Notes: generated from the sequence alone by a model not told the origin. Shown: positions 3,376 through 23,054, counted from the first letter of the stretch. The stretch is DNA of 23,054 nt from Candidatus Thorarchaeota archaeon (GCA_048882045.1 JBHLRZ010000043.1:1-23054); one strand, 5' to 3'. Program-made: numbers and translations.

Positions 3376-3404
3376 TGGGGAGAGAGGACTGCCCTCTCTC
3401 TCCA
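3376..3404 (-). terminator. Terminator-like hairpin beside array repeat R1
   Basis: TGGGGAGAGAGG-ACTGC-CCTCTCTCTCCA stem. The plus-strand GAAAAGAAAAG before it becomes a U-rich tail on the minus strand. Confidence 0.6.
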
Positions 3405-3418
3405 TTAGAAAATTGAAA

Positions 3419-3487
3419 CTACATCTGTTTCTCTTCTACTAAAAGGAAGGAAAGCTCGGCGATCAGGATTTTGCTATGGCTGATTCT
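3419..3487 (-). repeat. Array repeat R1 (degenerate gene-3'-end copy)
   Basis: 3419-3435 CTACATCTGTTTCTCTT matches the consensus 17/17 (EKQM*). The rest is eroded with indels, with an FLPF-like remnant. Confidence 0.7.
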
Positions 3488-3573
3488 GTATTATACTGAT
3501 TCTCAAATAGTTCCTTTTTATGAATCTCAGAATAAAATCATCCATAATGTACACCATGAGTTGTTGAGAGAAA

Positions 3574-3909
3574 ATGAAGAGTATGGCTGTTGAAGGGTCA
3601 GTCTTTTGGTTGCTTGCTAGTGCCATCATCAGTCCGCCACTTACATACTATCCCGGTTCTCCCTTCTACGAACCTACATTATTCGTGATACCCTATTTGT
3701 TTTCAGCTATGTACATTGTCATTGCGTACTTCTGTTGGAATGAAAATTCGCTTAGCTTTATAGCAGCCATAGTCCTTGCTCTATCTGTTGTGGCTATGAA
3801 CGTTGGCTTCGGTGGTCTTGCTTATCCAGGAGACGAGCTTCTAGCCATCGCTCAGATTTTGATCGTGTTTTTTGGTGCTAGAGGCTATAGAGAGGGTCGA
3901 GCAGAATAG
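3574..3909 (+). CDS. Small 4-TM membrane protein, unknown function
   Basis: 111-aa ORF with four hydrophobic stretches and a basic C-terminus. Confidence 0.65.
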   Translation: MKSMAVEGSVFWLLASAIISPPLTYYPGSPFYEPTLFVIPYLFSAMYIVIAYFCWNENSLSFIAAIVLALSVVAMNVGFGGLAYPGDELLAIAQILIVFFGARGYREGRAE

Positions 3910-4050
3910 ATACTCGATACACTAACCTATTCGTAATTCTATTTCTACCATTGTCGGAGGCTAGTTATACCTCTTCTCTTGATGCACCTGCTTGAGCCGT
4001 GAGATTAATCACAAACATTGGTCCACGTTATGGCAATGGAAGGATGAGAA

Positions 4051-4548
4051 TTGACAGGTATAGTTGATGTCCTGATGGACAGTTACCTAATAGAAGCAAA
4101 GCAGGCAAGAGTTGTCATTGACAAGGCAAGATTGGTAGACTCCGACTTTGTACCAACCAAGGGGATGAGGTCTCTCATAGAACTTGTGAATCATCTGTCA
4201 CAGGTTCCCAACTTAGACCCTGCTGTGTATTCGAGTGAGCTGGATTCCATGGATGCTATTCAAAAGAGAGAGATGGAGTTGCAAAGCAAAGACATTGATG
4301 GAGCTTTGGCGATATTCGACGAAGGTGTCAAGAACGCAGAGGACCGATTTCGTGGGATGTCTGACAAAGAGTTGCTTCAAAAGAATCTGCAACCATTTTA
4401 TGAATCCGGAGAAACCAAGAACTGGGCTCACTATGTCCCAGAGATGACAAGGCACATTGCAATGCACAAGATGCAGCTCTGGATGTATCTCAAGATTGGC
4501 GGACTAGATGTTGATATGATGACATACTATGGTGTTATAACTGAATGA
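4051..4548 (+). CDS. DinB/YfiT-like putative metalloenzyme
   Basis: F.PT.GMRSLIELVNHL and HIAMHKMQLWMYLK His motifs. TTG start after GGAAGGA. Confidence 0.8.
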   Translation: MTGIVDVLMDSYLIEAKQARVVIDKARLVDSDFVPTKGMRSLIELVNHLSQVPNLDPAVYSSELDSMDAIQKREMELQSKDIDGALAIFDEGVKNAEDRFRGMSDKELLQKNLQPFYESGETKNWAHYVPEMTRHIAMHKMQLWMYLKIGGLDVDMMTYYGVITE

Positions 4549-4647
4549 CGGTCTTGACCAAACATATACCAGACAACTGGAGTTTCTATTGCGAAGGTCT
4601 GTGTTGGGGCTCAAATAGACCCCCAAACGGACTTTCTATTTCAACAC

Positions 4648-4810
4648 TTTATATATACCCAACGAATAAACACCCCATAACTCTCCTTTTCCTCAAATAA
4701 TTCTTGATAACAGTTTCAAAACTGATGAGAAGGCAGTTATTCTCTAAGCGCTTCTATCTCTACATCGGTATGTTTGAACAACATATCGGTAAGAAAAGCA
4801 ATAACGAGGT
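4648..4810 (+). promoter_or_regulatory. Conserved upstream region, copy A (TATA-like box plus 33-bp motif)
   Basis: TTTATATA at 4648. TTTCAAAACTGATGAGAAGGCAGTTATTCTCTA at 4714-4746. Homologous to 6744-6842 and 22484-22580. Confidence 0.6.
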
Positions 4811-4820
4811 ATGAACAAAG

Positions 4821-5030
4821 ATGATGAAAATTAGCGCTGTTTCAAAGATACAGGCTGTGATTGAAGAAGTAAAGACCGTTGTACGACGGATCATTGTACC
4901 TGAGCACACGTACGATGAGGCCGCACGAGTGCACCGTTGCACAATCGCATCTGAGCAAGCATTGAAAGACCTTGAGGAGATCAAGACAGGCGGAAAGTCT
5001 GCCTCATATCGAACCGGCATTTTCCGATAA
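4821..5030 (+). CDS. Small hypothetical protein (69 aa)
   Basis: ORF follows GAGGT and the conserved upstream region. Its 3' end is also retained in a relic at 22118. Confidence 0.5.
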   Translation: MMKISAVSKIQAVIEEVKTVVRRIIVPEHTYDEAARVHRCTIASEQALKDLEEIKTGGKSASYRTGIFR

Positions 5031-5118
5031 CACTGTCATGTCCTGAGGAACATCTACAAAGATGGTTCGAATGGTTTTTGTTGAAGTGGGACTAAAGAAA
5101 TGTGTGGTTGTGGTTTAG

Positions 5119-21062: not shown

Positions 21063-21134
21063 CTACATCTGTTTCTCTTGCCTGTACGGCAGAAAGTCAG
21101 GTCCGAATATCTCGCGTGCCATGACGATCTTCTG
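21063..21134 (-). repeat. Array repeat R10 (reference copy)
   Basis: 72 nt = QKIVMAREIFGPDFLPYRQEKQM*. Hairpin AAGAAAGGGAT-TCGT-ATCCCCTTCTT at 21030-21055. Confidence 0.97.
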
Positions 21135-21290
21135 TTAGTCGTTCATTGTGAGTCTGAAATAGAAGTTCTTCAAGGATGTGAATAGGATACTTTATGAGAT
21201 AGACCCAGCAGATTACTACAATGTAGGAAGAGGCTTTAGGTTCTGAAGTTCTCGTGCATAATACAAGCATCTGAAGAGGTTGAGTATAGA

Positions 21291-22154
21291 TTGAGAAGAA
21301 CATGGATGAATCTAGAAGCGATAAGAAGCACAGACATCCGGCGACTGCTTGAAAACTTGGGTCTTTCTGGAATGATCCTATATATCGCGATCGAAGCCAG
21401 TTGGGGTGTCGATTATCCAAGTTTTGTGGAATATATGAGTTATAGCCCTAATCTCTATAGATTGACTGACCAGTTGATAATAGCTCTTAGTCCATACATT
21501 AGTATTGGCAACCTGTTCTCTCTAGTGTTTGCTGGTTGCATGTTTCTTGTGTTTCAGTTTACAAAACATCGACGCATTGAATTGATTCTCATTACAATTG
21601 CTGCAGCTTTGACTTTCAAGGTTCGAAGTGCTGCTATGTATCCATTACTGCTACTTCTGGCAGTTACTGGAAATCCTTTGGTACTCATTCCGTTAGCCCT
21701 TGTAAAAGAACATGCGGTTATAATTGGTGTCCTCTATCTTCTTGTGTTTAGACGTGAAGTTCCATTTAGAAAAGTCGTACTTGGTGGAAGCGCTGCTTTT
21801 GCACTTTGGTCTTGTGTTGTTCTATTGATGGGCTGGACATCCGTACCCGGCCTTCCAACTGGTCTTGGCATAACGTCATGGTTGTTACATATACAGGAGT
21901 GGAGCCTCATGACAATAGGATTTAGAACCGTGATTCTTCTCCCATCAATCATACTTCTAATCCGGGACAAAAACAGTGGATTGTTTCTCGGACTATGTAT
22001 TATAGTTCTGATTCTTGTAGCTGATTTCTTTGAACCTCAACATTGGTTAGCACCTGCTGTTCCACTTAGTTGGGAGGCTGTATCGCGGATATCTCCGGAT
22101 GAATCAATACAATCAACCGAACCAGTATTTTCCGATAACACTGTCATGTCATAA
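21291..22154 (+). CDS. Multi-pass membrane protein, unknown function
   Basis: 287-aa hydrophobic ORF. Start uncertain (21291 or 21306). Its last codons overlap the relic at 22118. Confidence 0.7.
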   Translation: MRRTWMNLEAIRSTDIRRLLENLGLSGMILYIAIEASWGVDYPSFVEYMSYSPNLYRLTDQLIIALSPYISIGNLFSLVFAGCMFLVFQFTKHRRIELILITIAAALTFKVRSAAMYPLLLLLAVTGNPLVLIPLALVKEHAVIIGVLYLLVFRREVPFRKVVLGGSAAFALWSCVVLLMGWTSVPGLPTGLGITSWLLHIQEWSLMTIGFRTVILLPSIILLIRDKNSGLFLGLCIIVLILVADFFEPQHWLAPAVPLSWEAVSRISPDESIQSTEPVFSDNTVMS

Positions 22155-22289
22155 GAATGATCTACAAAGCTGTTACGAATAGTTTTTGTTGAAGAGGTTA
22201 TCATAGTAAAGACTTGAATGTGTGGCTGTGGTATGAGTGGAATATATTCAGAAGATATAGGATGAATTCTTGGACAAGAGCATGTTTCA
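22118..22289 (+). pseudogene. Relic of the 69-aa/502-aa gene junction (homolog of 5010-5171)
   Basis: CGAACCAGTATTTTCCGATAACACTGTCATGTC...TGGACAAGAGCATGTTTCA aligns with 5010-5171. Reads VEYIQKI*DEFLDKSMF versus VDYIQIVKDDFLDKSMF, then is truncated. Confidence 0.8.
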
Positions 22290-22374
22290 TTATACTTTGG
22301 ATCCTCGAGATATTTCCAGAATTGTTCGAAAAAAGAAGAATGGAGAGGGATGATTACCCTCTCATATAGATGAA

Positions 22375-22446
22375 TTATTCCATCTGACCCTTCTGACGAT
22401 AGGGTAGATATTCAGGTCCGAATATCTCACGAGCCATGACGATCTT
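22375..22446 (-). repeat. Array repeat R11 (divergent allele)
   Basis: Minus strand KIVMAREIFGPEYLPYRQKGQME*. Seven synonymous and two conservative codon changes versus R10 in the first 18 codons. Hairpin GAGAGGG-ATGATTA-CCCTCTC at 22343-22363. Confidence 0.93.
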
Positions 22447-22483
22447 TTCCTGTACGTTTTTGAAACTAAAATACCACTTCTGG

Positions 22484-22580
22484 TTTCTAATCTGAAGAGA
22501 ACGCAGATATAGTAGTTCAGCTTTCTTTTCCACACCAATGTATTTGAACAATATATTGGTAATAAAATCAAAGACGTGGT
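22484..22580 (+). promoter_or_regulatory. Conserved upstream region, copy C
   Basis: Ungapped similarity to 4714-4810 (TTTCTAATCTGAAGAGAACGCAGATAT...TTTGAACAATATATTGGTAATAAAATCAAAGACGTGGT). Confidence 0.55.
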
Positions 22581-22603
22581 TAAAATAGGAGTTGTTTTGG
22601 AGT

Positions 22604-23008
22604 ATGACCGAAGTAAAAATGTTAGCGAAAATAGCCTTGTTGGCTTATGGAATTGCCTGTTTTCTATTTGGTCTCATGTTAATCTTTATGACTGCAACCT
22701 TTTTAGATCCCTTAGTTCCTGGCTGGGAGGTCAATGTGTTCCATCCAAGAGTGCTAGGTGGATTCCTGGTCGTCATAGGCTTTTTCGATATTCTAATGAT
22801 TCTCAATAAGAAATGGGAATGGGATCACATCAAAGTGGCCTACATGGCTCTATTTGCCTTCATCATTCCTATGATCATTGGGCAAATACTTTCATTGGTT
22901 CTCTTATCACCGACTGCTGCCTTTGTTGGCGAGATGATGTTTGAGATTCCCCTAGAAGCTGTACTACTAATCCTTGGAATCATCGGATACCTAAAGCAGA
23001 GTGGATAG
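22604..23008 (+). CDS. 4-TM membrane protein, paralog of 6901-7302
   Basis: Starts MTEVKMLAKIALLAYG, about 84% aa identity to 6901-7302. Confidence 0.85.
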   Translation: MTEVKMLAKIALLAYGIACFLFGLMLIFMTATFLDPLVPGWEVNVFHPRVLGGFLVVIGFFDILMILNKKWEWDHIKVAYMALFAFIIPMIIGQILSLVLLSPTAAFVGEMMFEIPLEAVLLILGIIGYLKQSG

Positions 23009-23023
23009 AATTGGAATAATCTA

Positions 23024-23054
23024 TGAAGAGAGGAGGTAACGCTCCTCTTCTTCA
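23024..23054 (-). terminator. Terminator-like hairpin, predicted start of the next array unit
   Basis: TGAAGAGAGGAG-GTAACG-CTCCTCTTCTTCA, same GA/CT style as the hairpins flanking the other repeats. Confidence 0.55.

Follow-up and report, generated by a model that had tools for sequence, protein, structure and literature searches.

A cassette array anchored at an acyl-CoA dehydrogenase 3' end that looks like an undescribed gene-collecting site in Thorarchaeota

Integrative elements can accrete in tandem at a gene 3' end, as ICESt1 and ICESt3 do at fda. The CIMEs and microCIMEs of streptococci are decayed, cis-mobilizable elements that keep att-like sites without recombination genes (PMC7563491), while in the tycheposon islands of Prochlorococcus repeated integration at one site displaces older elements inward (bioRxiv 10.1101/2020.12.28.424599). 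Integrons, including integrase-less attC arrays and the integrons of archaea (PMC9668308), gather numerous small cassettes at one site, most of them single-gene and very diverse in function, and exchange, gain, lose and reorder them at a conserved boundary element. The locus described here shares features with each of these systems and differs from each.

We analysed a stretch of 23,054 nt (contig C43; hereafter the window) which an initial annotation had placed in an Asgard archaeon and which indeed comes from Thorarchaeota. A profile search found seven full and three partial copies of a repeat of about 64 nt, which we call R, all on the minus strand and all intergenic. Full copies lie at 12134..12195, where R opens a three-gene segment, at 13461..13523 and 15012..15073, where it opens the LVIVD and glnA cassettes described below, and at 17527..17590, 19871..19933, 21063..21126 and 22379..22441. 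The partial copies comprise the first 42 nt of R at 15791..15832, the first 38 nt at 7360..7397 and, within 3376..3436, the last 18 nt (3419-3436, stop codon included) together with a hairpin. Every R is followed by such a GA/CT-rich, terminator-like hairpin of 8 bp, for example GGGAGAGAGG/CCCTCTCTC at ~17488-17512, with others at ~19835-19860, ~21025-21055 and ~22335-22375; the hairpin is more stable than shuffled sequences and shows compensatory changes. The initial annotation had given ten repeat starts, all intergenic and in the same orientation, and these match the ten copies, while its possible further copy near 10550 turned out to be merely a similar GA/CT hairpin and not R. The window copies are diverged, since an exact 67-mer allowed up to 3 mismatches matched only twice (against no match in shuffles), and the longest exact run common to two of them is 26 nt. 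No Rfam family matched the window at gathering score, and no tRNA was found in it.

Read on the window's minus strand, R encodes ...IVMAREIFGPDFLPYRQEKQM-stop, the true C-terminus of a 413-aa acyl-CoA dehydrogenase (ACAD) whose gene lies in the same genome (contig C56, 9945-11186), and it corresponds in frame to the last 21 codons plus stop of that gene. Homology among the copies begins at about TCGTCATGG in all of them, at the K-I-V codons upstream of an in-frame ATG, and the block extends to the gene end. Pairwise identity at codon positions 1, 2 and 3 is 0.83, 0.87 and 0.58, and this third-position variation argues that the copies evolved as a working gene end; the copy at 22379..22441 differs from the others mostly by synonymous changes, such as AGG to CGT, both Arg. 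Frame and stop are kept in 147 of 234 array copies (63% keep the stop), and the ATG is kept in every full copy.

These last features, together with the codon-periodic variation and the hairpin after each copy, would also suit a functional unit duplicated beside genes, be it a 19-codon micro-gene (MAREIFGPD[FY]LPYRQEKQM), a terminator or a small-RNA module. We consider this very unlikely, because R is the end of a 413-aa enzyme, its homology begins upstream of the ATG, its copies are confined to one locus, it has no Rfam match, and two of the five copies are frameshifted in a genome that lacks ACAD.

Since R represents a protein gene's 3' end, the array falls into a class that the initial annotation had set aside, namely accretion in tandem with duplication of a target's 3' end. 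The part of that annotation which described mostly one-gene, recombinase-less cassettes at a single site stands. The array is a variant of tandem accretion at a gene 3' end, with unusually small cassettes and no integrase, and it is neither an unrelated new kind of platform nor an integron; the window very probably lies within a cassette array whose anchor is the ACAD gene 3' end. Co-oriented 3'-end copies, an intact gene and a fixed edge on the crossover side all mark tandem 3'-end accretion and are all present here. A further mark, an integrase in the units or in a related element of the same genomes, was not found among the known families searched.

Read in the direction of ACAD (window minus strand), a unit consists of R, the GA/CT-rich hairpin and then cargo, in most cases a single self-contained gene that may face either way. 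At the ACAD side the contig ends within segment 22442..23054, which holds the cargo of the next cassette towards ACAD, a 4-TM protein of 138 aa (22592-23008, +). Cassette 21127..22378 encodes a 287-aa 7-TM membrane protein (21291-22154, +), with a remnant, at 22118-22289, of the 5' region of the 502-aa gene family also represented in segment 3437..7359. It is followed by cassette 19934..21062, whose 340-aa 7-TM membrane protein (19948-20970, -) is also found in a relative (G012), in a cassette ending at repeats there, and by cassette 17591..19870, whose 685-aa beta-helix/NosD protein (17734-19791, +) belongs to the commonest cargo family of these arrays. Beyond these lie cassettes for a 506-aa TPR protein (15833..17526; gene 15888-17408, -), a rhodanese-domain protein (15074..15790; 15119-15673, -), a glutamine synthetase that is the third such paralogue in the genome (13524..15011; glnA, 13564-14886, -) and an LVIVD-repeat protein (12196..13460; 12319-13395, +). 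Relative G004 carries the glnA cassette at 92% identity, the LVIVD cassette at 89% identity on another contig, and the rhodanese cassette at a different position in the order. From 12.1 kb on there is thus one gene per interval, in either orientation, as first annotated, the third of the membrane proteins listed there being the 4-TM protein past the last repeat.

The three-gene segment 7398..12133 encodes an esterase (10782-12086, +), an FAD/BBE oxidase (9008-10456, +) and an S41 peptidase (7422-8876, -), and segment 3437..7359, which lies between two half repeats, holds two ORFs of 111 and 165 aa, the gene of a 502-aa protein (5119-6627, +) and that of a 152-aa 4-TM protein (6844-7302, +). 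The multi-gene segment 1..3375 (ArsR, FMN reductase, two SCP2 proteins and flavodoxin/4Fe-4S) is array interior: it is repeat-flanked in relative G044 and runs on into contig C44.

In the whole genome, R occurs only on contigs C43, C44 and C56 (13 copies by whole-genome scan). Synteny with G044 supports the join between C44 and C43, and we infer that C56 links to them and that the three contigs form one locus with at least 16 repeats. Multiple copies are present in 24 of the 28 genomes of the genus and the array appears on 80 metagenome contigs, giving 412 copies at 150 loci in total, so that a repeat search over the genome and its relatives, as the initial annotation had suggested, finds copies clustered at one locus and the array recurring across the genus. 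Dispersed repeats of the MITE or REP type were considered and rejected, the copies on the three contigs being assigned to one locus and R being co-oriented in 149 of the 150 loci. The median interval is 1318 nt and exactly one ORF occupies 160 of 262 intervals (61%), with three to eight genes in some; as many as 10 repeats lie on one assembled piece. Cargo includes surface beta-helix proteins, hydrolases, redox enzymes, regulators and the extra glutamine synthetase. The closed genome CP070761.1 (3.16-Mb chromosome) has five co-oriented copies within 5 kb, two of them frameshifted, without any ACAD orthologue, and insertion at the gene is therefore not needed for array maintenance. R was absent from the viral contigs searched. 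In the genome of the window, several tRNA genes (Phe, Leu, Pro/Ala) have recurring copies of their 3'-tails, and those of tRNA-Phe begin at the T arm, like classical integrase sites.

Comparison of cassette order and content between relatives, another check raised at the outset, showed units gained, lost and reordered exactly at R. Identical cassettes are ordered differently between genomes with breakpoints at repeats, and many differences take the form A-R-B versus A-R-X-R-Y-R-B. The glnA and rhodanese cassettes, adjacent here, are 3.1 kb and four repeats apart in G004, and where window cassettes recur in other genomes, their ends lie 0-20 nt from repeats. No empty site with matching flanks could be aligned. 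The genus genomes compared are all metagenome bins, and array contigs are short and frequently end at repeats, as might be seen if mixed-strain assembly across repeats had created the array or its apparent reshuffling. We judge such an artefact extremely unlikely, because the exact runs shared by window copies (at most 26 nt) are below the usual assembly word length, and because the same layout recurs in dozens of independent assemblies and in the closed CP070761.1 chromosome.

Domain searches of the window ORFs detected neither a recombinase nor a transposase, which bears out the initial annotation, and the scanned ORFs around the ACAD gene gave no recombinase domain either. PF00589 and PF00239 had no match in this 93%-complete genome; PF00589 matched in only 8 of the 28 genus genomes and never on array contigs. 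This genome and the array contigs examined thus yielded no tyrosine or serine recombinase, and the suggested search for a recombinase co-occurring with the array gave no match to a known recombinase family on those contigs. The absence of attC sites and of a local integrase likewise held up, the boundary being the ACAD end plus a simple hairpin, with no PF00589 match. ORFs from six tyrosine-recombinase loci of the genus (L070-L075) matched none of 388 inter-repeat ORFs, and their sole clear match was found 10 kb away from an isolated partial repeat.

The cassettes could be decayed remnants of full-size, integrase-bearing integrative elements, either proviruses or plasmids, inserted serially at ACAD, in which case the small units would be immobile. 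Tandem integration followed by decay is well documented, for instance in tycheposon islands with their partial tRNAs and integrase fragments (bioRxiv 10.1101/2020.12.28.424599), and the intervals with three to eight genes would fit. This origin nevertheless seems improbable to us: the L070-L075 queries revealed no integrase-like ORF or fragment between repeats, 61% of intervals hold exactly one ORF, R copies are well conserved, and one-gene units recur near-intact elsewhere, beside other neighbours and with exact repeat-to-repeat boundaries. The likeness to tycheposon islands lies in the rows of partial target 3'-end copies between cargo genes. However, tycheposons encode tyrosine recombinases together with replication genes and their islands are littered with integrase fragments, whereas the inter-repeat ORFs here showed no integrase-like remnant; their targets are tRNA genes and not a protein gene, and the ACAD array units are far smaller and more regular.

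CIMEs are alike in that their direct repeats are the 3' end of a target gene which is regenerated, and in that att-like sites are kept without recombination genes in tandem units of strain-variable order. In streptococci, however, the process is driven by an integrase-bearing related element in the same species, whereas no integrase was found for the array of this archaeon. CIME arrays also comprise two or three units of many kb, while the ACAD units are mostly one gene of ~1.3 kb at a locus of at least 16 repeats.

The array resembles integrons in that one site gathers numerous small cassettes, most with a single gene and very diverse in function, which are exchanged, gained, lost and reordered at a conserved boundary element. 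As in integrons, new arrivals probably insert beside the anchor. An IntI-type tyrosine recombinase lies beside integron arrays, whereas none was found here, and the imperfect palindromes of attC, with paired R and L boxes, contrast with a boundary made of a host gene's coding end and a plain 8-bp GA/CT hairpin. While integron cassettes are mostly promoterless, co-oriented and served by one promoter, the ORFs of the ACAD arrays face both ways (159 in the direction of the anchor gene and 229 opposite) and must therefore carry their own promoters.

We think it reasonably probable that recombinase-less cassettes accrete at the ACAD 3' end and are reshuffled there, entering by means of a recombinase supplied in trans and being rearranged by homologous recombination. 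A unit would enter as a circle and recombine with a resident R, most likely the copy at the ACAD gene itself, at or near its 5' edge (about TCGTCATGG). The incoming R would become the working gene end, displacing the former end down the array, and R would be under protein-level selection because each incoming copy takes on this role. For the first capture, we think that a site-specific recombinase acts in trans, coming from a transient element or belonging to an unrecognised family; elements that retained att sites and lost their integrase offer a parallel. Host homologous recombination between R copies would account for much of the reshuffling.

Linkage of R to upstream cargo ends at R position 7-8 and is absent even at positions 9-24. 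Linkage to downstream cargo climbs towards the R 3' end and the hairpin, but it is partial and graded with no sharp switch, which fits variable crossover points too. Graded linkage is among the observations that would favour a process with no dedicated recombinase, in which the ACAD end is a homology patch where circles looped out between two R copies, or DNA imported from relatives, re-enter by host homologous recombination, as in an additive flexible genomic island maintained by RadA-type recombination. So is the failure to find an integrase in this genome or in 20 of the 28 genus genomes. Several anchors (ACAD and tRNA tails) are apparently used in one genome, which would be easy for a sequence-agnostic process; R scores show no decay with distance from the ACAD gene, copies far from the gene being no more decayed than near ones; and third-position identity is slightly higher within a genome than between genomes (0.635 versus 0.577). 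This process would, however, leave unexplained how a new gene first acquires R, why hundreds of copies share the same sharp 5' edge, and why copies of the tRNA-Phe tail share the T-arm start of integrase sites. The lack of upstream linkage even at positions 9-24 is asymmetric for uniform crossovers, and R offers only ~64 nt of homology with shared exact runs of at most 26 nt. We therefore regard homologous recombination by itself as rather unlikely and prefer entry by a recombinase acting in trans.

We found no description of an ACAD-anchored array in the searchable literature, in line with the initial annotation, which had not recognised it as described in Asgard archaea, and the array looks like an undescribed gene-collecting site in Thorarchaeota. 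It would be a concrete, widespread site at which these archaea collect and swap accessory genes, integron-like in action and different in build, its recombination site being a spare host-gene end kept functional by selection with no known integrase at hand. More tentatively, the ACAD array and the tRNA-tail repeats may be products of one process, a general gene-capture system of Thorarchaeota with an unrecognised recombinase or none, in which one-gene cassettes carrying spare host-gene 3' ends are stacked behind the gene and traded between lineages; if true, this process would represent a major route by which accessory genes move in Asgard archaea. The locus offers a clear target in the search for a new archaeal recombinase or, alternatively, could show that homologous recombination alone sustains cassette arrays.

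A profile search for the repeat (R, about 64 nt) found seven full copies in the window, starting at 12134, 13461, 15012, 17527, 19871, 21063 and 22379, and three partial copies (7360–7397, 15791–15832 and 3419–3436), all on the same strand and none inside a gene. These are the ten positions proposed in the initial annotation. The window spans all of contig C43, which belongs to a bin of 3.63 Mb in 93 contigs with 44% G+C. A 67-mer search tolerating three mismatches or fewer gave only two matches in the window, and the longest identical run between any two window copies is 26 bases, so the copies have diverged. 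The minus-strand translation of R ends in IVMAREIFGPDFLPYRQEKQM followed by a stop codon, and most of the changes that set the copy at 22379 apart from the others are synonymous, such as AGG to CGT, which both encode arginine. A six-frame search of the genome identified the R peptide as the true C-terminus of a 413-residue protein on contig C56 (9945–11186), in which all three acyl-CoA dehydrogenase (ACAD) domains are present. R therefore represents the final 21 codons and stop codon of the ACAD gene, copied to a new position.

A short GA-rich/CT-rich hairpin with a T-rich stretch lies 15–20 nt past each R. Its mean stability is −12.1 kcal/mol, compared with −6.6 in shuffles, and it modestly exceeds the stability of ordinary 3’ flanks from this genome. 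Counted over 60 copies on a helix specified by hand, standard pairs fill 74% of the hairpin cells, and double-sided changes exceed those in all of 500 shuffles; RNAalifold run on the mixed alignment returned no consensus structure. A further repeat that had been thought possible near 10550 proved to be only a similar hairpin: a GA/CT hairpin resembling those that follow R, without R itself, lies at 10490–10520 between an FAD oxidase and an esterase gene. It could mark a boundary that has been lost, or be just a terminator.

Domain content of the window’s ORFs bore out the gene list drawn up from the sequence, as well as the remark that no recombinase or transposase is encoded there: no window ORF carries such a domain. 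An Rfam scan and a tRNA scan of the window were both empty. The 66-nt periodic direct repeats at 18124–19459 are coding repeats of a beta-helix/NosD protein and are distinct from the boundary repeats.

A profile scan of the whole genome, which the initial annotation had suggested, detected 13 copies of R, confined to C43 and two other contigs, C44 and C56. In G044, the closest relative with a long contig (77 kb), the first 3.3 kb of the window and the end of C44 form one unbroken stretch, so C44 adjoins the window’s left end. Copies of R in G044 also bound the five genes of this stretch (for ArsR, FMN reductase, two SCP2 proteins and flavodoxin), and the left end of the window therefore still lies within the array. 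We propose that C44, C43 and the reverse of C56 follow one another in window orientation, which puts the ACAD gene at the far right; C43 and C56 share no sequence overlap, and their link would follow from the orientation of the repeats. Together the locus holds at least 16 copies of R across about 29 kb. Because the flanks differ between species, synteny delimited neither an empty site nor the point where the array ends on its far side. On C56, the opposite strand immediately upstream of the ACAD gene encodes a pair of paralogous multi-pass membrane proteins, 533 and 550 residues long (5560–7161 and 8079–9731), which are 39% identical and belong to no Pfam family; the 3’ ends of their genes share a 106-nt stretch.

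Multiple copies of R are present in 24 of the 28 genomes of the genus, with a maximum of 21 per genome, and the array is always downstream of the ACAD gene where both are on one contig. A pattern scan found R on 80 further metagenome contigs; two of these, longer than 100 kb, each have about 15 or more copies. The non-redundant set comprises 412 copies at 150 loci, co-oriented at 149 of them. Neighboring copies are separated by a median of 1318 nt (262 intervals), and when ORFs of at least 90 residues are counted, exactly one is found in 160 intervals, two in 47 and none in 22. The 150 loci encode 970 ORFs, 388 of them between repeats; the 970 group into 500 families, 333 of which are singletons. 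ORFs run in the direction of the ACAD gene in 159 cases and opposite to it in 229. The most frequent cargo family is that of the beta-helix/NosD proteins, and further cargo includes beta-lactamase-fold hydrolases, flavodoxins, PadR and Lrp regulators, alcohol dehydrogenases, DUF362 proteins, glycosyltransferases and an ABC ATPase.

In other genomes, homologous cassettes have their edges 0–20 nt from R. The window’s LVIVD, glnA and rhodanese cassettes have counterparts in G004 (89%, 92% and 86% identity, respectively), its 340-residue membrane protein cassette has one in G012 (70%), and a C44 cassette has one in G005 (84%). Base-level alignments showed that near-identity halts at R, with unrelated sequence beyond it. 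The glnA and rhodanese cassettes are adjacent in the window, while in G004 they are 3.1 kb apart with four copies of R between them, and differences of the form A-R-B versus A-R-X-R-Y-R-B recur in many other pairs of loci. Cassette order thus varies between genomes, and this comparison, also suggested by the initial annotation, supports a dynamic array. Misassembly across the repeats could produce such reordering, but we consider it unlikely: the exact runs common to copies of R are short, the same layout appears in many independent assemblies, and the closed chromosome CP070761.1 also has an array, of five co-oriented copies within 5 kb, with none detected elsewhere on that chromosome. The CP070761.1 array (L223 10140–15169, at about 3,060,140–3,065,170) has the usual hairpin and carries nitroreductase, DUF362 and prenyltransferase-like genes.

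Homologues of the cassette glutamine synthetase are found in two closed genomes (L221 10001–11323 and L222 10001–11257). No R was found within 10 kb of either, the similarity to the cassette is confined to the coding region, and the L221 homologue sits among core genes, with neighbors such as IF-2B, TFIIB and SUI1. Given this setting, the cassette gene may derive from an ordinary gene on the chromosome of a related lineage.

Among 135 distinct full copies of R, pairwise identity at codon positions 1, 2 and 3 is 0.83, 0.87 and 0.58, and 147 of the 234 full-length array copies retain an open frame with a stop at the ACAD position. We saw no gradient of decay, as the R score does not drop with growing distance from the ACAD gene. 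Third-position identity is 0.575 to the ACAD end of the same genome and 0.510 to the ends in other genomes, and since this closeness is only slight, most copies are either imported or old. The simplest reading is that every R once served as the real end of some ACAD gene, which follows if the gene is where arriving cassettes insert, each providing it with a new end. The orphan array in CP070761.1, which lacks an ACAD orthologue and in which two of the five copies are frameshifted, fits R as a former working gene end.

Homology among copies of R starts at one fixed place, about TCGTCATGG, irrespective of the sequence upstream. We examined linkage in pairs of R that share only upstream cargo (34) or only downstream cargo (45). 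Linkage to upstream cargo stops at R position 7–8, while linkage to downstream cargo starts out weak at R’s 5’ end and strengthens toward the stop codon and hairpin. This pattern points to a unit made up of R, hairpin and cargo, with exchange at or near the 5’ edge of R, where an incoming cassette would provide the ACAD gene’s new end, much as at classical attachment sites the target gene’s 3’ end is restored by the element. The grading could reflect variable crossover points, or it could arise if, during the time a cassette stands first in line, allelic recombination at the ACAD gene replaces the 5’ portion of its R. Partial copies that keep only the 5’ part of R end in a loose cluster at model positions 36–45, and 3’-only copies have no matching hotspot.

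Phage-integrase and resolvase profiles gave zero matches in this 93%-complete genome; almost all control genomes were matched. A tyrosine recombinase (PF00589) occurs in only 8 of the 28 genomes of the genus, never on an array contig; the domain was not found in this genome or in 20 of the 28, so that even a XerA-type chromosome resolvase went undetected. ORFs from six tyrosine-recombinase loci of the genus (L070–L075) did not match any ORF between repeats, and the sole clear recombinase-like ORF (at L157) is 10 kb from a lone partial R. Two pattern scans found no R on viral contigs.

Two protein families were considered as the array’s enzyme and set aside. A 502-residue protein (window 5119–6627) has a paralogue on C56 (12892–14451) whose start codon abuts R. 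Only 10 of the 28 genomes encode the protein, and elsewhere it does not adjoin R. Its structural model (pLDDT 89) has an unknown helical N-terminal domain and two Lrp/AsnC-like units, as in NirDL. It forms part of a two-gene module that occurs three times in the array (window 5010–7304 and 22118–23007; C56 12249–14451), consisting of a 502–519-residue protein restricted to Thorarchaeota and a 132–152-residue protein with four transmembrane segments; one copy has lost the large gene. The second family, proteins of 606–1073 residues with HTH and LAGLIDADG-like domains, has no member in this genome, lies mostly on non-array contigs in the genus and is a lead only. In several other Thorarchaeota lineages such genes directly follow the ACAD gene in convergent orientation (L118 3014–6235, L078 4352–6172, L202 2483–4792 and L155 1982–4276). 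The LAGLIDADG-like domain scores above the Pfam cut-off, the HTH matches are weak, and some genomes have multiple copies.

The 3’-terminal 24 nt of tRNA genes (Leu, Pro/Ala and Phe) also recur in this genome, several of them in a row on a single contig: on C9 at about 63.4–68.1 kb, C49 at 0.8–16.9 kb, C12 at 2–6.7 kb, C54 at 9.4–12.1 kb and C68 at 5–6.2 kb. Additional arrays may thus exist that use tRNA 3’ ends as anchors. Copies of the tRNA-Phe tail, the one tail inspected, begin at the T arm, like integrase sites. Because of these tails, we lean toward site-specific capture by recombinases absent from the assemblies. Homologous recombination could instead drive the array, as would agree with the lack of a detected recombinase, the several anchors in one genome and the graded linkage along R, although we consider this less likely.

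The array does an integron’s job, but lacks every structural hallmark of one, with no IntI, no attC and mixed cassette orientation. It has the features of tandem accretion at a gene’s 3’ end, and its units correspond to elements defined by the retention of att sites and the loss of recombination genes (PMC7563491). The closest described analogue for the resulting row of target-gene fragments is the tycheposon island. Compared with tandem accretion and tycheposon islands, the array differs in its length, in its small, regular and mostly one-gene units, in its archaeal host and in that neither an integrase nor integrase remnants were detected. The searchable literature on mobile elements of Asgard archaea and on archaeal integrons yielded no description of it. 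Altogether, the proposal of a gene-capture array holds, and the observation behind it is real and stronger than was visible from the sequence. The array is not an entirely new type of system but a variant of 3’-end accretion, in which R is the 3’ end of the ACAD gene.
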